DNA of 64,000 nt, from NCBI GenBank assembly GCA_964419835.1, contig CAYQPT010000002.1, forward strand, positions 6,732 through 70,731, in the 5' to 3' direction. Source of the DNA: an uncultured Candidatus Saccharibacteria bacterium. GTDB lineage: Bacteria; Patescibacteriota; UBA1384; XYA2-FULL-43-10; 1-14-0-10-43-13. The position numbers and the translations under genes are program-made. Shown here piece after piece: positions 22,627 to 36,308 of this stretch; the stretch's first letter is position 1, and every line of letters starts with the position of its first letter. The notes under the pieces were generated by a model. It did not search any database and was not told the origin of the DNA. It saw only the letters and a list, made by a program, of their open reading frames with translations.

Positions 22627-22822
22627 CAATCACAATAAAGTCCGATCTACAATCTTCTTCTTTGCCCACTTCCCTACTTCATCAAACTAGTTTGATGAAG
22701 TAGAATCTAGTCCAATTAATTATTATCTACTGGGCAACAAATTATGAAGTTATTGTCCATTCTGCCAATGATTCTTCCTCAATAAAACGCTTAACTTAAA
22801 GGCGTATTATTTTTATCAGAGC

Positions 22823-29025: not shown

Positions 29026-29529
29026 CTATTTTGTTGATATGTAGTTTCTTAGCTTCTCAGCATAATCTTCAACTGTTTTTATCTTTTCCGGTGTTTTCCA
29101 ATTTTCTTTTGCATAAATCATCATCGGTTTGACCGCTTTTATTCCGGTGCCAAATTTATCCAAAGCTTCCTTAGTTACAGGATAGAGCCAGAGATGAAAA
29201 TGCTCATCTTTCCTCTCTGGCAACTCCGCCACAATAATATTAACTTGATTTATATTTAAAACCTCGCGCATCCCCTTGCGTAGTCTTACTATTAGAGACA
29301 TAAACTCTTTTTGTTCCTCCTCGGTAAACTGGTCGATGCTTTTAATGTGTCTATTAGATGAGATGATGATGAATCCGGGTATTGGGATTTCGCAATCCTG
29401 ATTAACGCAAAAATGCTCTGATTTATAAATCATCCCGCATGGCACCTTGTACTCTCCTGAATCAATAGCACAACTCAAACACTCTTCATTTAAGATGGTT
29501 TTATTATTGTAGATGTCAATTATTTCCAT
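29026..29529 (-). CDS. HIT-like superfamily protein with a degenerate histidine triad
   Basis: 167 aa. N-terminal CxxC...C..C. The triad region reads EHFHLWLYP, i.e. H-x-H-x-W in place of H-x-H-x-H. Confidence 0.4.
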   Translation of the reverse strand: MEIIDIYNNKTILNEECLSCAIDSGEYKVPCGMIYKSEHFCVNQDCEIPIPGFIIISSNRHIKSIDQFTEEEQKEFMSLIVRLRKGMREVLNINQVNIIVAELPERKDEHFHLWLYPVTKEALDKFGTGIKAVKPMMIYAKENWKTPEKIKTVEDYAEKLRNYISTK

Positions 29530-29623
29530 AAAACCAATATATCAACAAAAGAAAATATTATCTACAAATCCCAACAATCAAATGTAAATAAAGTGTAGAA
29601 AAGAACTATTTATAGCAAATTAT

Positions 29624-30433
29624 CTATTGAGAAGTTTTTCGGCGGAACAACCAAGAAGCAACCGGTAAGGAAACGAGAAGAATACCGATGCTCCATGCAA
29701 CCGATTTCCAGCCATAATCGCCAATGGGCATACCTAGCATGAGAGAGCGAACGGCTCCGATAACCTGAGTGATTGGTTGATTCTCGGCAAAAACGCGGAG
29801 AACCGGCGTCATACCCTCTGTTGGGACAAAAGCGCTGCTAGCAAAAGTCAAAGGGAAAACGAAGACAAATGTTAGCCATTGAACCGCTTCAATACTTTTG
29901 GCAATCAGGCCGACAATTGCAGCCAACCAAGAAAAGGCCAAAGTAAAAAGTAGAAGAATCCCACTAATAACCAACCAGTCAGATGCGCTAGCCTCTGGCC
30001 TGAAACCCAGAACTAGCCCCGCAAGAATCATTACCACGGTCGAAATGATATTGCGGAAAAGATCGGAAATGACATGCCCATTAAGAACTGCCAGATTAGC
30101 CATTGGAAGCGAGCGGAAACGGTCCACTATCCCCTTTTGAAGATCGTTACAAACAGCAATGGCAGTTGTCGTGGACCCAAATGCAACTGTTTGAACGATA
30201 ATCCCCGCCATTAAAAAATTTAGATAGCTAACGCCCGGAGGCAATGCTCCCGAGACAGCTCCACCGAAGACGGCGACAAATAGAACCAAAAACATAATTG
30301 GCTGGAAAAATGTTCCGAGCAGCTGATCCATATTACGCACAATATGGGTGCTGCTGCGCCTGATCATAATAAGAGAATCATTGAATGCTAAAACGATTCT
30401 TGGTTTTTTTTCAAATTCTAATTTAACAGTCAT
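29624..30433 (-). CDS. ABC-2 family transporter permease
   Basis: 269 aa with 6 TMs. The ABC-2 type signature region sits in the central loop. The start overlaps the ATPase stop. Confidence 0.7.
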   Translation of the reverse strand: MTVKLEFEKKPRIVLAFNDSLIMIRRSSTHIVRNMDQLLGTFFQPIMFLVLFVAVFGGAVSGALPPGVSYLNFLMAGIIVQTVAFGSTTTAIAVCNDLQKGIVDRFRSLPMANLAVLNGHVISDLFRNIISTVVMILAGLVLGFRPEASASDWLVISGILLLFTLAFSWLAAIVGLIAKSIEAVQWLTFVFVFPLTFASSAFVPTEGMTPVLRVFAENQPITQVIGAVRSLMLGMPIGDYGWKSVAWSIGILLVSLPVASWLFRRKTSQ

Positions 30434-31395
30434 TTGTCCTCCTCGGCATCGGCCGCCACTTTTTGTTTGCCCGTCAGAGATAAAAAAACATCGTCGAGAG
30501 TTGGCTTATGCACGGCCAAGGAAAGCAATTTGATATCGGCTTTACTCAATCTTTTAAGAATATCTTGAACATCAATATCGGTATCTTCAATAACTGCGCA
30601 AATAGTAAAATCTTTCTCGTTTATAGCAGTGGTATATTTACTCAATATTTTTTTAGCCTTTGATAACTTCTCAGCGTCAACCAAGGTAAGTTCCAGCCGG
30701 TCTTTGCCAACCTTGGACTTCAACTCTTTTGCTGTTCCCTCGGCAATAACCTTACCGCCGTCAATAACAGCAATACGGTCCGCCAACTGATCGGCTTCTT
30801 CAAGATACTGAGTTGTGAGCAATATAGTAGTGCCACTATCTAGTAATTTTTTAATAATCGACCACATTGCCAAGCGGGAACGAGGGTCAAGACCAGTTGT
30901 CGGTTCATCCAAAAAAATGATTGGAGGCGTTGCAATAAGACTCACAGCCAAGTCCAAACGACGACGCATGCCGCCTGAATATGTTTTGGTGATCCGGTCG
31001 GCGGCATCAAGAAGATCAAATTCTTTCAGTAACTCTTGCGCTCGAGCTTTGGCACTTTCTGGTGTTAGACGATATAGTCTTCCCATCATCACCAAATTTT
31101 CGCGGCCGGTAAGCAACTCATCCACCGCAGCAGACTGCCCTGTCAAACCAATAATGCCTCGGACTTGATCAGCCTGTTTTGTAACATCATAACCGCCCAC
31201 CGAAACTAACCCGCCATCATAAGAAAGCAAAGTACTCATAATCCTAACTATGGTAGTTTTGCCTGCTCCGTTTGGCCCCAGCAAAGCCAACATTGTGCCT
31301 TTTTCAACTTGCAAATCGACGCCTTTAAGAACATGGTTCAAACCATAAGATTTGGTCAAATTCTTGACCTCGATGATATTTTGGGGTTCGTTCAT
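30430..31395 (-). CDS. ABC transporter ATP-binding protein (DrrA-like)
   Basis: Walker A GPNGAGKTT. Signature YSGGMRRRL. Walker B IIFLDEPTTGLD. A C-terminal regulatory extension is present. Confidence 0.85.
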   Translation of the reverse strand: MNEPQNIIEVKNLTKSYGLNHVLKGVDLQVEKGTMLALLGPNGAGKTTIVRIMSTLLSYDGGLVSVGGYDVTKQADQVRGIIGLTGQSAAVDELLTGRENLVMMGRLYRLTPESAKARAQELLKEFDLLDAADRITKTYSGGMRRRLDLAVSLIATPPIIFLDEPTTGLDPRSRLAMWSIIKKLLDSGTTILLTTQYLEEADQLADRIAVIDGGKVIAEGTAKELKSKVGKDRLELTLVDAEKLSKAKKILSKYTTAINEKDFTICAVIEDTDIDVQDILKRLSKADIKLLSLAVHKPTLDDVFLSLTGKQKVAADAEEDK

Positions 31396-31510
31396 ACTAT
31401 TACCATCCTCAATAATTCAACTGCGGTATGTTTCATTATATAAAAGTGCACTAATAAATTCAATAGTCTATTCTAATGGCTTAGTCATGCCTGTTCGATT
31501 CCTCATTACT

Positions 31511-31557
31511 AAAAAACCATCCCGCATAGCTCATCTTCGATGAGCGACGTGGGATGG
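31511..31557 (-). promoter_or_regulatory. hairpin followed (on the minus strand) by a U-tract in the 5' leader of the ABC operon; attenuator/terminator-like
   Basis: A compound stem on the + strand: CCATCCCGC ... GTGGGATGG enclosing GCTCATC-TTC-GATGAGC, preceded by AAAAAA. Read on the minus strand, the hairpin is followed by UUUUUU, about 110 nt upstream of the ATPase start codon. Confidence 0.3.
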
Positions 31558-31615
31558 CAGGATGTAACAACTGAAGTCAGAAACTTTTATGCCATTAATG
31601 GATTTTTGCTAGCGA

Positions 31616-32239
31616 TTGTCATATAATTTACACATGAGTACAAAACTTAAAAATCGATATATTCTGATTGCTTTTTCTGCGATCGAGATAGCGATAGTAT
31701 TGCTGCTGTCAACTGGTATAATTCAGCCAGATTTACGATTTTATTTCTTGGTAGTTTTTGGTTTTGCAACATTGGTTTGTTCTTTGGTCATGAGCGACCA
31801 AAAAAAGATGCTCGGATTAAGAATTGATAATATTAAGAGTGCAATGCTTGCAAATTTAGCTTTCGTGATTGTTGGATCGTTATTTATACTTATCGTCCGA
31901 GAGTTTAATTTAGTACGCTATGTTCTCGATAACATTCCTCCAGCCAGCTGGTATATATTATATGCCTTGCTTCTTGGGCCGATTCAAGAATTTATTTTCA
32001 GAGGATTCTTATTTGCTCGACTTAACAGTAGTGGGATTAATCCTTTGTTCAGAATTATAATAAGCGGCTTACTCTTTGGTTTTATTCATTTAATTTATGG
32101 CGACATTTGGACTCTAATTTTCGCAACGATTTTCGGAATTTGTTTAAGCATTATTTATTACTATAAACCCAATTTATATGCCGCAATATTTTCTCATAGC
32201 ATAATTGGTGCGTTAGCAATCTATCTCAGAATTATATAA
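31616..32239 (+). CDS. CPBP-family (CAAX protease / Abi) intramembrane metalloprotease
   Basis: The conserved motifs are in the right order and spacing: EExxxR (QEFIFRGF), FxxxH (FGFIHLIY) and a C-terminal HS..G (HSIIGA). Confidence 0.75.
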   Translation: MSYNLHMSTKLKNRYILIAFSAIEIAIVLLLSTGIIQPDLRFYFLVVFGFATLVCSLVMSDQKKMLGLRIDNIKSAMLANLAFVIVGSLFILIVREFNLVRYVLDNIPPASWYILYALLLGPIQEFIFRGFLFARLNSSGINPLFRIIISGLLFGFIHLIYGDIWTLIFATIFGICLSIIYYYKPNLYAAIFSHSIIGALAIYLRII

Positions 32240-32275
32240 CAAAAAATGACCAGCCATCGACGGCTGTTCATTTTT

Positions 32276-32501
32276 TGGCAGGGCCAAGAGGAATCGAACC
32301 CCTAATAGAGGTGGCGCCTGTCCGCCGCAGTTACAATCTTGGCAGGGGCTAGAGGAATCGAACCCCTAATAGAGGTTTTGGAGACCCCCGTTATACCATT
32401 TAACTAAGCCCCTATCAAGATTGTACATTAACGTAGGCAGGAAGACCCTCGTTATTCCCGCTGCTCGCGAGCGGCGGGATATACCATTTAACTATGGCCC
32501 T
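32276..32501 (-). other. nested tRNA unit: tRNA-Trp-like 5' half fragment, inverted repeat, intact tRNA-Trp, inverted repeat, tRNA-Trp-like 3' half fragment
   Basis: The 5' fragment (about 32478-32501) is AGGGCCA-TA-GTTA-AATGGTA-TATC. The 3' fragment (32276-32312) is ACCTC-TATT-AGGGG-TTCGATT-CCTCT-TGGCCCT-G-CCA. The fragment acceptors AGGGCCA and TGGCCCT are perfectly complementary and differ from the inner tRNA acceptor (AGGGGCT / AGCCCCT). The 26 nt spanning anticodon-stem 3' strand to T-arm are identical to the inner tRNA. A 9-bp inverted repeat (TTACAATCTT at 32331-32340, AAGATTGTA at 32417-32425) directly flanks the inner tRNA. Confidence 0.6.
32340..32413 (-). tRNA. tRNA-Trp (anticodon CCA)
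   Basis: Cloverleaf read by hand: AGGGGCT-TA-GTTA-AATGGTA-TAAC-G-GGGGT-CTCCAAA-ACCTC-TATT-AGGGG-TTCGATT-CCTCT-AGCCCCT-G-CCA. CCA is encoded. Confidence 0.85.
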
Positions 32502-32595
32502 AAAATGCGCTTGTGCGCAATTATCAATTACCGATAGTCAATGATCATTAAATGAAAATTGAAAAATGATAAATGAAAAATGTAATCGCTTGCGA

Positions 32596-32763
32596 TTACT
32601 TCGTCTCTTTGTGTGCTGTGCGTTTTTTATCAACTTTACAATACTTGACCAATTCAATTCTCTTGATGACATCTTGGCCTTTAAGTCTTTTTTCTGTGTG
32701 ATAATTTCTCGCTTTGCAGTCTGCACATTCGAGAGTTACTAGTTTCCTTGCTTCTTTTGCCAT
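32596..32763 (-). CDS. rpmG: 50S ribosomal protein L33 (not in the ORF track)
   Basis: Translates to MAKEARKLVTLECADCKARNYHTEKRLKGQDVIKRIELVKYCKVDKKRTAHKETK, the bL33 zinc-ribbon signature. The 32538..32726 ORF in the track is a different frame. Confidence 0.8.
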   Translation of the reverse strand: MAKEARKLVTLECADCKARNYHTEKRLKGQDVIKRIELVKYCKVDKKRTAHKETK

Positions 32764-32782
32764 GATTTTTCCTTATATTAAA

Positions 32783-32947
32783 TGGAGCCGAAGGAGGGAT
32801 TTGAACCCACGACCTACTGTTTATCCCTCACCCTTGGAGCCACCTGGGGGATTTGAACCCACGACCTACTGTTTACAAAACAGTTGCTCTACCACTGAGC
32901 TAAGGTGGCACTCAAGGGTGAGGGACTCAACACTGAGCTACTTCGGC
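32783..32947 (-). other. nested tRNA unit: tRNA-Thr-like 5' half fragment, inverted repeat, intact tRNA-Thr(TGT), inverted repeat, tRNA-Thr-like 3' half fragment
   Basis: The 5' fragment (about 32924-32947) is GCCGAAG-TA-GCTC-AGTGTT-GAGT. The 3' fragment (32783-32820) is ACAGT-AGGTC-GTGGG-TTCAAAT-CCCTC-CTTCGGC-T-CCA. The fragment acceptors GCCGAAG and CTTCGGC are perfectly complementary and differ from the inner tRNA acceptor (GCCACCT / AGGTGGC). The 28 nt spanning anticodon-stem 3' strand to T-arm are identical to the inner tRNA. A 12-bp inverted repeat (CCCTCACCCTTG at 32826-32837, CAAGGGTGAGGG at 32913-32924) clamps the inner tRNA, including its CCA end. Confidence 0.6.
32837..32909 (-). 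tRNA. tRNA-Thr (anticodon TGT)
   Basis: GCCACCT-TA-GCTC-AGTGGTA-GAGC-A-ACTGT-TTTGTAA-ACAGT-AGGTC-GTGGG-TTCAAAT-CCCCC-AGGTGGC-T-CCA. There is one T-stem mismatch. CCA is encoded. Confidence 0.85.
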
Positions 32948-32949
32948 AA

Positions 32950-33036
32950 TGGTGCTGAGGGCAGGATTCGAACCTACGAAGGCACAAGGCCGTGTGATTT
33001 ACAGTCACATGCGTTTGACCACTTCGCTACCTCAGC
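32950..33036 (-). tRNA. tRNA-Tyr (anticodon GTA), type II with a long variable arm
   Basis: GCTGAGG-TA-GCGAAGTGGTCAAACGC-A-TGTGA-CTGTAAA-TCACA-(15-nt variable arm CGGCCTTGTGCCTTC)-GTAGG-TTCGAAT-CCTGC-CCTCAGC-A-CCA. Confidence 0.85.
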
Positions 33037-33124
33037 ACATATTTTAATGTCCTTCGACTACTTTTCGAATCATTCGACTCAAATGGTTTACCATGAGCGA
33101 GCGAATAAAATGAAGCGAGTCGAA

Positions 33125-33200
33125 TGGAGCCGACGACGGAACTCGAATCCGTGACCTCACCCTTACCAAGGGTGTGCTCTACCAACTGAGCTACATCGGC
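33125..33200 (-). tRNA. tRNA-Thr (anticodon GGT)
   Basis: GCCGATG-TA-GCTC-AGTTGGTA-GAGC-A-CACCC-TTGGTAA-GGGTG-AGGTC-ACGGA-TTCGAGT-TCCGT-CGTCGGC-T-CCA. Confidence 0.85.
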
Positions 33201-33436
33201 CCAACTTTGCTCTAGTTTGCGCTAGAGCTACGCTGGGCAAGCAAACTCAGGATGAAATTCACTTGTCCTTCGTAGCCCGGCTACAAGAGGGCGAAGAAGG
33301 AAGCTACATCGGCACAGGCGTGAGATCACTCTCAAGCGTAAGGAACAAAAAAATTGTAACATTTTTCTCTAATATTTTCAACCATCAGGTGAGCAGAAAC
33401 AGCAACAACATTTCTGACATTAACTTGCTATATTCT

Positions 33437-33790
33437 TTAATTATTTTCTTTCTTCATTTCAATCAAAGTCTCTGCAGCCAAAATACCTCTTTCTACCTTG
33501 TCTCTCAATCTTTCTGCAGTGGCGATATTACTCCTTGCCTCTTCAGTCGCCTCTCCAGTCTGCGCCCTCTGTATTGTATCTTCAAAACTTTTCCTCACTA
33601 TCGTCGCCGCCTCAACATACTTCCTTAATTCATCGACAGATTGCTCAAAAATATTCGCATCCACTCCGTTAAGATCAAGCCCTCTCTTTTTTAATTTCCC
33701 CTCCCACAATTCTGCTTCTGTATCCGGACCCTTCATCGATCGGATAAAATCCGCTTCGCCTCTGTATTCACCAATCATGTTTCCCCCCAT
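33437..33790 (-). CDS. hypothetical protein (charged, helical)
   Basis: 117 aa ORF immediately downstream of the creatininase-family gene, with a 1-nt gap. No recognisable motif. The start is uncertain (MGGNMIGEY...). Confidence 0.3.
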   Translation of the reverse strand: MGGNMIGEYRGEADFIRSMKGPDTEAELWEGKLKKRGLDLNGVDANIFEQSVDELRKYVEAATIVRKSFEDTIQRAQTGEATEEARSNIATAERLRDKVERGILAAETLIEMKKENN

Positions 33791-33791
33791 G

Positions 33792-34466
33792 CTATTTTAA
33801 GAATTCTTCCATTTTTTCTTCCGAGCCGTTTACCATTTTATCTAAATGTTTTTTGCCTAGTTCTAAGGAGGATTTTTCCAGCGGATCAGAGCCGTGGAAG
33901 TTCACAAAATCATCATCTTCGGTAAGGGTAACCGCCCTAGATTTCGCTTCTTCTTCCGGATGACAAGCCCATAATAGCGATGTTTCGCCCTCATCGGCAT
34001 GTGCTATGTGGTCAGTCATCTCGTATGGATTTATAAATAAAACTTTTTCATCCCCCTCTGCAATTTCGGTTAATTTTGCAACTTGGTTACTCCCGCCATG
34101 TCCCGTAACAATAATAACTTTTTTAAATCCCTGATCTTCCAAGTTCTGAACTACTGAAAGAATAATTTCTTTAAATAAATCGGGCTTAACAAAATACAAA
34201 TTACCTAAAAGTGCCTTACCCAATCTTTTGTCCATCCCTCTAAGTTCTTTGCCATCGATGATTTTTGTCCCGTATGCGCCCAAATAAATGGGCGGCAAAA
34301 CATATCCCTCATATTTTTCAGCTAAAATCCGGCAGATTTTTTCCGCTACCATAAAATCTGTCTCGATCGGCAAATGATTTCCATGCCACTCTATTGTCCC
34401 GAGCGGCACATAAGCAATCCCCTTTTTCACAAATTCCTCATATTCCTTCAATGATGTAGTTTTCAT
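33792..34466 (-). CDS. creatininase (creatinine amidohydrolase/ArfB-like) family protein
   Basis: 224 aa. N-terminal PLGTIEWHGNHLPIETD and later VTGHGGSNQ fit the creatininase fold signatures. Confidence 0.7.
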   Translation of the reverse strand: MKTTSLKEYEEFVKKGIAYVPLGTIEWHGNHLPIETDFMVAEKICRILAEKYEGYVLPPIYLGAYGTKIIDGKELRGMDKRLGKALLGNLYFVKPDLFKEIILSVVQNLEDQGFKKVIIVTGHGGSNQVAKLTEIAEGDEKVLFINPYEMTDHIAHADEGETSLLWACHPEEEAKSRAVTLTEDDDFVNFHGSDPLEKSSLELGKKHLDKMVNGSEEKMEEFLK

Positions 34467-34577
34467 AATTTTTATCCTTTTTACATTTTAATATTACCTG
34501 AATTAATAATTCACTGCCAATTATATGAATACTACTAGCTAAACGCCGGTGGTATTTATATATTCACGGATTCACAC

Positions 34578-34609
34578 CCTACTTCAACAAACTAGTTTGT
34601 TGAAGTAGG
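34578..34609. repeat. perfect 32-nt palindrome CCTACTTCAACAAACT|AGTTTGTTGAAGTAGG (copy 1 of 3)
   Basis: The element is exactly self-complementary with a central ACTAGT. Copies lie at 35061-35096 (36 nt, identical core) and 22674-22703 (a variant, CTACTTCATCAAACTAGTTTGATGAAGTAG). Confidence 0.8.
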
Positions 34610-34634
34610 AATAATCAAGGTTCTTTATTGCCTA

Positions 34635-35006
34635 TCATATGGCTCCGGGATAGTGTGATTTGAACGGATTCTCCTTCTCAGCCAAAATCGTCTCGTGTTT
34701 GAACTTATATTCTAAAACAATTTCCATGAGCTTGATTCCACCGGAATCCAGACATTTTTGAGCATTTGTGATTGTCCCGGTAGAGGTGCCAATCAATTCC
34801 TGAATTTTTAGATAATTAAAGTTCTTTGCCAGCATCCGCATGATGTTTAACCTCTGTCCCAAATACGCTTGCTCGGACTCAGACAGGAACGAGTGAAGAA
34901 ACAAAGTCAAATCCTCCTTTGTTCTAATTAAATTTATAATATCCACCAGAGTTTCAAACTGCTCTTTCCTCAATTCCTCATCATTGATGTTCGCAATTCT
35001 TTTCAT
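34635..35006 (-). CDS. TrpR-like (YerC/YecD family) helix-turn-helix protein
   Basis: 123 aa. N-terminal MKRIANINDEE..., and the central LSESEQAYLGQRLNIMRMLAKNFNYLKIQELIGTSTGTITNAQ matches the Trp-repressor-like YerC/YecD family. Confidence 0.6.
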   Translation of the reverse strand: MKRIANINDEELRKEQFETLVDIINLIRTKEDLTLFLHSFLSESEQAYLGQRLNIMRMLAKNFNYLKIQELIGTSTGTITNAQKCLDSGGIKLMEIVLEYKFKHETILAEKENPFKSHYPGAI

Positions 35007-35060
35007 AATCTCCTTTTATAAATTTGGATTAATTATTCAATATTATATTACACCATATTA

Positions 35061-35096
35061 ACCCTACTTCAACAAACTAGTTTGTTGAAGTAGGGT
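35061..35096. repeat. perfect 36-nt palindrome ACCCTACTTCAACAAACT|AGTTTGTTGAAGTAGGGT (copy 2), just upstream of the TrpR-like gene start
   Basis: Same core as 34578-34609, extended by 2 bp on each side. It lies 55 nt upstream of the ATG at 35006 on the minus strand. Confidence 0.8.
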
Positions 35097-35309
35097 GCCT
35101 AATCATATTTTACTGGATCTAAAGGAATTTAAGAAAGATTGGGTTGGGAGTAGTACAAAACTTCCATTCGGGCGATTTCGGATTTGGAATTAGAGCTGCA
35201 TAAAGCGACTATTTTTTGCTCTATCAATCTTTAAAAGTGGTTGTGTTTGTGCTATTTTCTTTTTGTAGAGGCGTACTGCTCTCCTTATTCTAATAATAAG
35301 GAGATAGCC

Positions 35310-35477
35310 ATGTCAGAAAAGACCGGAAAAGAAGAGCTGAAGAGTGCTTTCACCAGGACACTTCGGGAAAGAAAGCCTCGAATCCGTAAACAGTTCGGAA
35401 CGAAACCAGATTGCATCCCCGTCGGGTGTTTACCGCCCGGAAAATTGATAAGTGTTCCCGTCTATAAACGACGATAG
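35310..35477 (+). CDS. small basic hypothetical protein (55 aa), start corrected to the ATG with an RBS
   Basis: MSEKTGKEELKSAFTRTLRERKPRIRKQFGTKPDCIPVGCLPPGKLISVPVYKRR. The RBS AAGGAGA is 6 nt upstream and a strong terminator lies downstream. The 23 codons upstream in the ORF track lack an RBS. Confidence 0.3.
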   Translation: MSEKTGKEELKSAFTRTLRERKPRIRKQFGTKPDCIPVGCLPPGKLISVPVYKRR

Positions 35478-35490
35478 GAACAGCTATCAG

Positions 35491-35528
35491 CCCCACCGGT
35501 TCGGCTTTGCCGGTGGGGATCATTTTTA
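35491..35528 (+). terminator. rho-independent terminator
   Basis: CCCCACCGG / CCGGTGGGG 9-bp GC stem with a 10-nt loop, followed by ATCATTTTTACT. Confidence 0.65.
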
Positions 35529-35687
35529 CTTAAGGGTTTTTTGCCCGTAGTACAAAACTTCCATTCGGGCGAGGGCAGACTTGGGATTAGAATCGCTTAA
35601 ATATTCAACCACTTCCCCACTCTCCGGATCTTCAAAAAATATTGAGTACTTTCCTTTGTTCTTATTGTAAATGCAATCAGGAAAAAG

Positions 35688-36308
35688 CTAAATCAGGTAC
35701 ATGAGCCCGATACCAATAGCAATCAGAATAGTGCCAATAATTTTTTGAGTGATTCTGTTTCGTTCGTTCAAGAAAATTATCCCAGCCAACAAAGTAATTA
35801 TTAAAGACACTTGAGTAACAGGCACCACCTTTGACGCTTCACCGGTTTTAAGAGCATAGAACAGCAGTAGCTCAAAAAAACCGTAAATAATGCCCGAAAT
35901 AATAAGCCCCCACTTTTGGATTCTTAGTTCATCTACAACCTTTTTCGGCTTAAATCCCAAAAACATAAAACTAATGAGGCCGATCAAAAGAAATTCCAGA
36001 GAAGCTGCTGCAGATTCAGGAAAATCTTGAACTGTAAGTTTAGCGAACACAAATGCAATTACGGCAAAAAAAGTACTCAAAACCGTTAAGTAAGCGCCTT
36101 GATTGATTTTAATTTTCTTCTTCTCAAACAAAGCAACTACAACACCGGCAATAATAAATAATATTGCAATGATTTTTGAAAAACTTATCGCCTCAGCAAA
36201 CACAAAGAGTCCGCCAAATAAAATAAAAATATGCCTTGTTTGATTTATAATTTGATATTCAGAAACATCAATCTTTTTTATCGCAATGAAAGAAAACCAA
36301 TCGGCCAA
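35688..36308 (-). CDS. EamA/DMT-family membrane protein, single-domain size (possibly truncated)
   Basis: 206 aa, about 6 TMs. A C-terminal EamA-type signature (GEASKVVPVTQVSLIITLLAGIIFLNE). Canonical family members are about 300 aa with two domains. Confidence 0.45.
   Translation of the reverse strand: MADWFSFIAIKKIDVSEYQIINQTRHIFILFGGLFVFAEAISFSKIIAILFIIAGVVVALFEKKKIKINQGAYLTVLSTFFAVIAFVFAKLTVQDFPESAAASLEFLLIGLISFMFLGFKPKKVVDELRIQKWGLIISGIIYGFFELLLFYALKTGEASKVVPVTQVSLIITLLAGIIFLNERNRITQKIIGTILIAIGIGLMYLI

Follow-up and report, generated by a model that had tools for sequence, protein, structure and literature searches.

The stretch analysed here, 64,000 nucleotides (nt) of an uncultured Candidatus Saccharibacteria contig (CAYQPT010000002.1; hereafter the window), contains an intact gene for transfer RNA (tRNA)-Thr(UGU) lodged between the two halves of a second tRNA-Thr(UGU) gene, at positions 32947–32783 of the minus strand. 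Comparison with related loci indicates that this nest is probably the product of an insertion: a cassette bringing its own tRNA-Thr(UGU) would have entered the anticodon region of the cognate single-copy gene resident there, and the outer halves would be the pseudogene left behind. We are less confident that homing nucleases drove the event. The initial annotation of this locus had preferred a selected structure, a split or host tRNA-like RNA, and this we do not uphold, the outer sequences being ordinary alleles that lack essential parts, decay in relatives and obtain no tRNA score. The alternative mentioned there, insertion of a tRNA by a tRNA-targeting mobile element, is supported by a conserved cassette that occurs in different resident alleles.

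The layout was worked out by reading the minus strand with the aid of a repeat finder, ARAGORN and the Rfam tRNA family RF00005 (gathering threshold, 29 bits). The region 32947–32783 runs from an outer 5' fragment through a 13-bp arm, an intact tRNA-Thr(UGU) and a second arm to an outer 3' fragment, and the nested order reported earlier is thereby confirmed. The outer 5' fragment (GCCGAAGTAGCTCAGTGTTGAG, 32926–32947) consists of the acceptor 5' strand and a damaged D arm with two D-loop changes, and nt 25–35 of this gene are missing. It is followed by the left frame arm (TCCCTCACCCTTG, 32913–32925), by an unpaired 3-nt leader, AGT (32910–32912), between the frame and +1 of the inner tRNA, and by the inner gene itself (32835–32909), which is called by ARAGORN and scores 72 bits against RF00005. 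The inner tRNA has the acceptor pair GCCACCT/AGGTGGC and an encoded CCA, the C75-A76 of which is overlapped by the right frame arm (CAAGGGTGAGGGA, 32824–32836). The two arms are complementary at 13 of 13 positions; the inverted repeat described in the initial annotation is thus present, but is 13 bp long and not 12. Its likeness to the anticodon arm of tRNA-Thr(GGU), also pointed out there, is borne out by 10 nt of the right arm (AAGGGTGAGG) that match nt 37–46 of that tRNA exactly. The outer 3' fragment (TAAACAGTAGGTCGTGGGTTCAAATCCCTCCTTCGGCTCCA, 32783–32823) extends from T36 to CCA and has CTTCGGC as its acceptor 3' strand; it agrees with the inner tRNA at each of its first 28 nt, which reach into the T arm. 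The outer acceptor 5' strand, GCCGAAG, pairs with this CTTCGGC at all seven positions, and both strands differ from the inner pair, as had been noticed. The insert in the outer gene is about 105 nt long and contains no open reading frame (ORF). Folding the 165-nt nest as RNA reproduces the nested drawing, with z = −6.9 against shuffles.

About 400 nt downstream, the tRNA-Trp locus (32501–32276, minus strand) repeats this layout, and the recurrence claimed earlier is real. The outer tRNA-Trp begins with AGGGCCA at 32501, and the first part of its 5' fragment (AGGGCCATAGTTAAATGGTATA, 32480–32501) is 100% identical to the intact tRNA-Trp of a related locus (related loci are given here as L numbers), L001. 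The D arm is then interrupted by a 24-nt palindrome of 79% GC (32456–32479), the sole GC-rich palindrome of the window, which has ATA/ATA flanks relative to L001, and the second part of the 5' fragment (ATAACGAGGGTCT, 32443–32455) ends at U33. The left arm of the Trp cassette (32414–32442) comprises a closing-helix strand, TCCTGCC, a spacer, the leader arm TACAATCTTG and AT, and is homologous to L108 and L083. The inner intact tRNA-Trp(CCA) (32340–32413; ARAGORN; RF00005, 61 bits) has the acceptor pair AGGGGCT/AGCCCCT, and is followed by the right arm (32313–32339), made up of the trailer arm (CA)AGATTGTA, a spacer and the conserved end GGCGGACAGG. The outer 3' fragment (ACCTCTATT...TGGCCCTGCCA, 32276–32312) has an acceptor 3' strand that pairs 7/7 with 32501–32495. 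Besides the palindrome, the outer tRNA-Trp is defective in lacking A37–A39 and in having an A27/C43 mismatch. The RNA fold of this nest also yields the nested drawing (z = −3.8).

The origin of the outer halves is revealed by relatives, which were fetched from genome and metagenome collections using rpmG, the ribosomal protein L33 gene between the two nests (32596–32763, minus strand), as an anchor; an exact-sequence lookup of the L33 protein gave ten metagenome contigs. The tRNA-Trp gene is single and intact in L001, L004, L005 and L008, and nested in the window and L007. The outer tRNA-Trp of the window has the sequence of these intact genes, with the acceptor AGGGCCA/TGGCCCT and with the 5' 32 nt identical when the palindrome is set aside; it is therefore an ordinary resident tRNA gene that has been interrupted. 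Filled and empty tRNA-Trp alleles thus occupy the same site in related genomes, and their flanks are mosaic: over 29300–35700, the window and L001 are 97% identical in the Thr(GGU)-Tyr block and in the block from rpmG through the spacer to the tRNA-Trp 5' part, and 70–89% identical in the neighbouring genes outside these tRNA and rpmG blocks. For the Thr nest, the counterpart is in L031, whose intact tRNA-Thr(UGU) has the acceptor GCCGAAG/CTTCGGC and shares its T stem with the outer gene of the window. The roles are reversed in L031, where the GCCACCT allele, which is the inner one in the window, forms the broken outer copy; L023 likewise swaps the roles of the two Trp alleles. On this comparison the outer halves derive from resident tRNA genes. 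The perfect complementarity of the outer acceptor strands was inherited from the normal gene and says nothing on selection for a new structure. The initial annotation was correct that a 7-bp match exceeds chance, but not in taking it as a sign of selection, since intact relatives carry the same pair; the Thr nest lies far beyond chance because it shares ancestry with a normal tRNA gene.

The outer genes also show decay. The initial annotation had proposed to see whether the outer halves score as a tRNA with an insertion; they received no tRNA call from ARAGORN with introns of up to 250 nt and lowered thresholds, nor from Rfam at E ≤ 10, and excising the insert restores no complete tRNA at either nest of the window. 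Among the complete nests (n = 16), outer acceptor pairing is 7/7 in 11, 6/7 in three and degenerate in two. The 3' acceptor strands are degenerate or missing in the nests of L011, L012, L019 and L025. Many loci keep the 5' half alone (L018, L024, L026 and L031) or the 3' half alone (L078, L082 and L107), and GC-rich hairpins stand in place of universal T-loop nucleotides in L016, L073, L083 and L093. As far as their sequences tell, the outer genes are decaying scars of resident tRNA genes. Extra displaced tRNA-Trp 3' ends were found 190–1020 nt downstream of nests (L012:3887–3916, L020:3122–3143 and L023:3752–3769), and suggest successive insertions at the same tRNA. Small unannotated ORFs lie between the nests and these displaced ends; in the larger insertions of L012 and L023 the ORFs comprise only small unannotated cargo, and no recombinase was found among them.

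Our survey comprised 53 distinct Berkelbacteria-like loci, in which the order Thr(GGU)-Tyr-Thr(UGU)-rpmG-Trp is conserved. Fragments of the same tRNA type flank an intact tRNA in 31 of the 53, the 16 complete nests included, and such arrangements are thus common, at the sequence level, in Berkelbacteria-like Patescibacteria. Similar fragments occur in four of 76 loci from other lineages, all four of them from the candidate phyla radiation (CPR). In some loci, such as L013, adjacent tRNA genes are separated by spacers of 1 nt.

The clearest sign that the cassette is a unit comes from L080, whose frame, TCCCTCACCCTTGAGT[tRNA]AGGGTGAGGGATAAAC (also written TCCCTCACCCTTGAGT ... AGGGTGAGGGA), is identical to the Thr frame of the window, left arm included, and whose junctions are identical as well (..GAG|TCCC on the left and |TAAACAGT on the right). 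The resident allele of L080 is a different one, with GCCATCT/AGATGGC and the T stem GUCGG/CCGAU, like the intact gene of L027, and its inner tRNA has the acceptor stem GCCAGCA/TGCTGGC. The covariation of outer acceptors that the initial annotation had looked for is therefore formally present, as GCCGAAG/CTTCGGC in the window and GCCATCT/AGATGGC in L080 surround the same cassette, but each pair is an ordinary allele that is intact in relatives (GCCATCT in L027). Frames related to the left arm TCCCTCACCCTTG were found in L031, L082 and L087; those of L082 and L087 are near-identical to the Thr frame and bracket tRNA-Trp. L031 has a diverged copy of the cassette that retains the outer 5' half up to G35, and this places the insertion site at 35/36. 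The Trp cassette of the window is homologous to L108 and L083, with the common end GGCGGACAGG followed by CAAAACC, that is, with insertion between C34 and C35. Class I ends, CCTGCC...GGCGGACAGG, are common to Trp and Thr(GGU) cassettes. Judged from these comparisons, the cassette is conserved and has spread among different resident alleles. In the loci examined, frames lie only beside cognate tRNAs; no target-site duplication is present at the cassette junctions, and the window has a single copy of the Thr frame. Compared with Rfam at E ≤ 10 for the window and at the gathering score for nine related nests, the frames match no family.

A helix of at least 7 bp between leader and trailer was found in 17 of 187 tRNAs of the clade, compared with about 1% in controls, and 16 of these 17 have same-type fragments alongside, the exception being a 7-bp case at the tRNA-Tyr of L073. 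The geometry is alike in 12 of the 13 tRNA-Trp helix cases: ...TG, a 2-nt leader, the tRNA, N73-C74 unpaired and C75-A76 paired. In 14 Trp cassettes, the helices covary strongly, with 94% of cells paired versus 67% in shuffles and double changes in 14 of 19 pairs. The helices are almost purely Watson–Crick, with very few G.U pairs. Mismatches beside the helices, intended to part RNA-level from DNA-level constraint, number 11 G.U versus eight A.C.

In relatives, two families of putative nucleases adjoin the same tRNA genes. Small GIY-YIG ORFs of 88–110 amino acids (aa) (Pfam E = 1e-14 to 1e-18) terminate no more than about 17 nt from the 5' end of a tRNA-Tyr, tRNA-Thr(UGU) or tRNA-Trp gene (L012:1611–1892, L018:2066–2353 and L026:2821–3093; also L017, L027, L087, L109 and L151), and a further copy lies downstream of tRNA-Trp in L026 and L029. 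The second family, of 200 aa, has an N-terminal helix-turn-helix and a LAGLIDADG-fold domain (L001:2158–2760, L019:1706–2311 and L020:1810–2400; also L149, L151, L153 and others). None of its 99 relatives has a functional annotation, and those with a lineage name all belong to the CPR but one ("Candidatus Methylomirabilis sp."). This family adjoins a tRNA-Thr(UGU) gene in every locus examined, distant genomic contexts included. In 17 loci the ORF is immediately upstream and its stop codon falls inside the tRNA (UAG at nt 8–10 in the sequences read); it overlaps the tRNA in L149 and L150 too, and in L151, L152 and L153 the tRNA is just upstream of the ORF. Paralogs are located just upstream of tRNA-Trp and tRNA-Thr(GGU). 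The tRNA-Thr(UGU) alleles linked to the nuclease have an anticodon stem other than the common ACUGU in six of six distinct cases, with ACACU and GCGCU among the linked stems, compared with eight of 29 unlinked alleles (Fisher p = 0.002, without correction for phylogeny), and the Trp alleles beside the paralogs carry an unusual stem, CUUCU/AGAAG. The predicted nucleases of relatives are thus associated with variant tRNA alleles. L013, which lacks the nuclease ORF, and L077, which has it, carry identical tRNAs. Such linkage is what homing endonucleases would be expected to leave if they cleaved the common allele in its anticodon region and were inherited together with a resistant allele.

From these data we propose the following course of events. 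A cassette of about 105 nt, comprising the 13-bp frame and a replacement tRNA-Thr(UGU), would have entered site 35/36 of the GCCGAAG/CTTCGGC gene and destroyed it, so that the inner gene, presumably the working one, would now supply tRNA-Thr(UGU). The cassette would spread by homing or gene conversion: where an uninterrupted tRNA gene is broken in its anticodon region, cassette-bearing DNA would be the template for repair, with the invariant tRNA body serving as short homology arms, and only the variable acceptor ends would remain those of the recipient. The break was probably made by tRNA-gene-specific homing endonucleases of the kinds that lie next to tRNAs in relatives. Where a genome is tiny and its tRNA genes are single-copy, disrupting one of them by an insertion should kill the cell; insertions would be common here because the invader brings a working replacement, and it is this spare copy that would make the insertion harmless. 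Nests with differing inner and outer acceptors would persist because recombination between the direct repeats of 28–38 nt would give a mismatched, non-functional and lethal tRNA. We infer the break, the repair pathway and the selection against collapse from the arrangement of the loci.

Several observations weigh against this explanation. No homolog of either nuclease family, GIY-YIG or LAGLIDADG-fold, was found within the window, and the inner tRNA of the focal cassette has the common ACUGU stem, unlike a nuclease-resistant type. The L33 exact-protein lookup and the scans of genomes and metagenomes gave no exact empty site of the GCCGAAG Thr allele in a near-identical strain; one contig, L071, breaks exactly within the outer Thr 3' fragment, and the closest evidence of an empty site is the intact allele of L031. 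The homology arms implied by the identical junctions of the window and L080 are only about 15–16 nt, short for RecA-type recombination. The frame is conserved above its cargo, being identical in the window and L080 while the inner acceptors differ by three compensated pairs, and the Thr-type frame brackets different tRNAs; such conservation hints at a sequence-specific function of the frame. The GC-rich hairpins in the loops of dead halves have no account in the cassette model. These hairpins, many of the form TCCGCC-loop-GGCGGA, lie in the D loop, at 26/27 or in the T loop of dead outer halves, at window 32456–32479 and in L011, L012, L016, L019, L020, L023, L073, L076, L083, L093, L096, L108 and L110, and their homologous copies show compensatory changes. 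It is conceivable, if doubtful, that the framed cassettes and the TCCGCC...GGCGGA hairpins together form an undescribed mobile family of Patescibacteria, inserting specifically in the single-stranded loops of tRNA genes (D loop, 26/27, 34/35, 35/36, 37/38 and T loop) through a hairpin-recognising enzyme or an RNA-level step, with the spare tRNA copy neutralising the damage. If true, harmless gene invasion would have a third route, next to those of self-splicing introns and inteins.

A conserved frame with almost purely Watson–Crick helices would suit a recognition site for a protein or a DNA hairpin, so that a transposon-like mechanism has to be considered. The frame would then be the terminal inverted repeat of a miniature non-autonomous transposon with tRNA cargo, mobilized into tRNA loops by a transposase or hairpin-specific enzyme encoded elsewhere, in place of homology-directed repair. 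The perfection of the 13-bp repeat, its identity in L080 and near-identity around other cargo in L082 and L087, the identical junctions in two different resident alleles, the class I ends common to Trp and Thr(GGU) cassettes, the nearly pure Watson–Crick helices and a 3-nt ATA duplication flanking the palindrome at 32456–32479 all agree with such an element. However, the tRNA cassettes lack target-site duplications, the frame motif has a single copy in the window instead of dispersed ones, and no transposase was seen near any locus; moreover, the target is always the cognate tRNA of the cargo, which homology accounts for and a transposase would not. We consider this origin unlikely. An ordinary integrative element or prophage, in which an integrase leaves the displaced 3' end as an att duplication, fits far less well, even though duplicated 3' ends with the same acceptor occur alone 90–1000 nt downstream in L012, L023, L078, L082 and L107, sometimes with cargo ORFs between. 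The window retains a 5' fragment as well, the displaced end (CTTCGGC) is unlike the acceptor of the intact tRNA (AGGTGGC), and the insert of about 105 nt has no integrase. The initial annotation had already doubted a simple att duplication on the difference in acceptors, and we agree that such a scar is a highly improbable source of the nest.

If the outer halves were instead a selected tRNA-like RNA, a processing scaffold or an acceptor/T-arm minihelix working outside translation, the very stable predicted fold, the 7/7 outer acceptor pairing kept in 11 of 16 complete nests, the better preservation of 3' than of 5' halves in several loci and the compensatory changes in frames and hairpins (for example, L020 versus L023) would be readily understood. 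This is nevertheless very unlikely, since in relatives the outer sequences make up intact genes of the ordinary kind, only some related genomes have the nest, and parts of the outer genes are degenerate or lost: the D arm and anticodon arm in the window, the 3' acceptors in L011, L012, L019 and L025, one entire half in L018, L024, L031, L078, L082 and L107, and the T-loop nucleotides, replaced by hairpins, in L016, L073, L083 and L093. Removal of the cassette at the RNA level, by RNase P, RNase Z and a ligase or by another endonuclease, would join the outer exons into a second working tRNA. Insertion sites in the anticodon loop (34/35 and 35/36) would suit such splicing, the exon ends of the class I Trp nests L019, L020, L023, L073, L093 and L108 would rejoin exactly to GGTCTC|CAAAACC, and group I introns at tRNA 35/36 are known in Patescibacteria (PMC13011429). 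Yet removal of the insert restores no tRNA in the window, where the Thr gene is without nt 25–35 and the Trp gene is without A37–A39 and has the D-arm palindrome; none of the frames matches an intron or ribozyme family of Rfam, and T-loop hairpins replace universal nucleotides. There is accordingly very little to be expected of splicing. Finally, a collapsed or chimeric tandem tRNA array might be imagined, because direct repeats of 28–38 nt can confuse assemblers and L071 breaks at the outer Thr 3' fragment. Over 1295 nt, which take in the 3' part of the Thr nest and the entire Trp nest, the independent Logan assembly L007 agrees with the window at 100% identity, and the locus is therefore no artefact of assembly; the Thr architecture recurs in L080, and the same type of architecture in dozens of metagenome-assembled genomes and metagenome contigs from different studies. 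An error of assembly, which the initial annotation had named as a way in which its reading could fail, is thus virtually out of the question, and insertion of a tRNA-bearing cassette into a resident gene is the explanation that we retain.

The Thr(UGU) and Trp genes are not the only ones in the cluster to bear such traces. The first 12 nt (GCCGATGTAGCT) of a tRNA-Thr(GGU) form a third remnant at 33302–33313 (minus strand), behind the ancestral promoter region and 101 nt upstream of the intact gene. Adjoining it is a hairpin element, TCCTTC...GAAGGACAAG (33262–33301, minus strand), which has the same type of end as the Trp cassettes and no tRNA inside (compare L083). This tRNA-Thr(GGU) remnant probably records an older insertion of the kind proposed for the Thr(UGU) gene, as the Trp nest would record another. 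Just upstream of the intact tRNA-Thr(GGU), at 33199–33238, is a palindromised tRNA-like 5' fragment, GCCCAGCGTAGCTCTAG-CGCAAA-CTAGAGCAAAGTTGGGC, which suggests that the inverted repeats at these loci may have been generated by fold-back copying; the leader of L083 is an inverted copy of a tRNA-Trp 3' end. Neither the GC-rich palindrome nor the Thr frame has dispersed copies elsewhere in the window. The motif GRMGGACARG has three matches in the window against 0.4 expected, two of them inside the nests.

ARAGORN finds five tRNA genes in the window, all on the minus strand, four of which are clustered with rpmG in the order Thr(GGU)-Tyr-Thr(UGU)-rpmG-Trp. The intact tRNA-Thr(GGU) (33125–33200) and tRNA-Tyr(GUA) (32950–33036), both on the minus strand, are recognized by ARAGORN and Rfam, and the latter lies 2 nt upstream of the outer Thr fragment. 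A repeated element of 85–150 nt directly follows the CCA of several tRNAs (window 33040–33124; L001 1933–2018 and 2827–2975; L011, L017, L018, L019 and L027). Its sequence is TTCGACTCG...CTCGCTCATGG...GAGTCGAATGA(CCCTGAG)...GTCGAAGGRC, and it has an inverted repeat, CATTCGACTC/GAGTCGAATG, that draws on the CA of CCA; L012 and L020 have another repeat family (CGTAAAAATCGA...) at the same position. A group I intron (RF00028, 50.5 bits) interrupts the tRNA-Tyr gene of a distant Patescibacteria genome (L151:2138–2342) just behind its anticodon, and ARAGORN gives no call for this tRNA. Downstream of tRNA-Trp, a gene for a CPBP-family protease is present in the window, L007 and L011 and absent in L001. 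A perfect palindrome of 30–36 nt, CCTACTTCAACAAACTAGTTTGTTGAAGTAGG, has three copies in the window (22674–22703, 34578–34609 and 35061–35096), two of which flank a Trp-repressor-like ORF (34635–35006); these copies may be operator sites or a small repeat family.

The literature searched gave no account of nested tRNA genes in bacteria, nor of comparable cassettes that carry a tRNA, which is not proof of novelty. Carrying a spare copy would be a distinct way for selfish DNA to be harmless, to be set beside inteins, self-splicing introns and those integrases that restore the 3' end of the tRNA. The cassette model would explain swaps of acceptor stems of essential tRNAs between lineages, and the nests offer a natural system for studying tRNA-gene replacement and short-homology-directed repair. 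The survey also flags an unannotated LAGLIDADG-fold family and small GIY-YIG proteins that appear dedicated to tRNA genes, and it carries a warning for annotation, in that tRNA fragments beside intact tRNAs in Patescibacteria should be taken as scars and not as split genes.

The cassettes share features with several known systems but belong to none of them. Like miniature inverted-repeat transposable elements they have terminal inverted repeats (13/13, conserved in L080, L082 and L087), but they differ from these in having no target-site duplication and no dispersed copies in the window. Like tRNA-targeted integrative elements they target a tRNA gene, compensate with tRNA sequence and leave displaced fragments, whereas here the insert is tiny, without an integrase, and brings a complete tRNA with its own acceptor, and both 5' and 3' remnants are left. 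Group I introns are known in the anticodon loop of bacterial tRNA genes, including position 35/36 in Patescibacteria (PMC13011429; PMC3984707), and resemble the cassettes in their sites (34/35 and 35/36), in phylum, in being harmless and in having probably spread by homing. In contrast to these introns, the cassettes are about 105–150 nt long and without a ribozyme core, and would be harmless by virtue of the spare tRNA and not of splicing, the broken gene staying dead. Among the disrupted tRNAs of archaea are the split tRNAs of Nanoarchaeum, tRNAs with multiple introns and those underlying the Caldiarchaeum model of disruption by mobile elements (PMC3293823, PMC4390854). Breaks at loop positions, short GC-rich hairpins in the D, anticodon and T loops and a proposed mobile element are common to both systems. 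In archaea, the bulge-helix-bulge endonuclease and (trans-)splicing yield a working tRNA from the pieces; here, the interrupted gene is not rebuilt, and the tRNA would come from a separate intact copy. By analogy, the system works most like intronless homing by free-standing endonucleases, as represented by SegB of phage T4, a free-standing GIY-YIG homing endonuclease in a tRNA gene cluster (PMC2330249). It would differ from SegB in operating in a cellular Patescibacteria genome and not in a phage, in leaving the resident gene as two halves around the incoming copy, and in that the window cassettes carry no nuclease gene, cleavage by the ORFs of relatives being a prediction. In both, a nuclease gene lies among or next to tRNA genes (here in relatives), linked tRNA alleles differ at the presumed target, and a whole tRNA-containing segment would be preferentially inherited or replaced through break repair.

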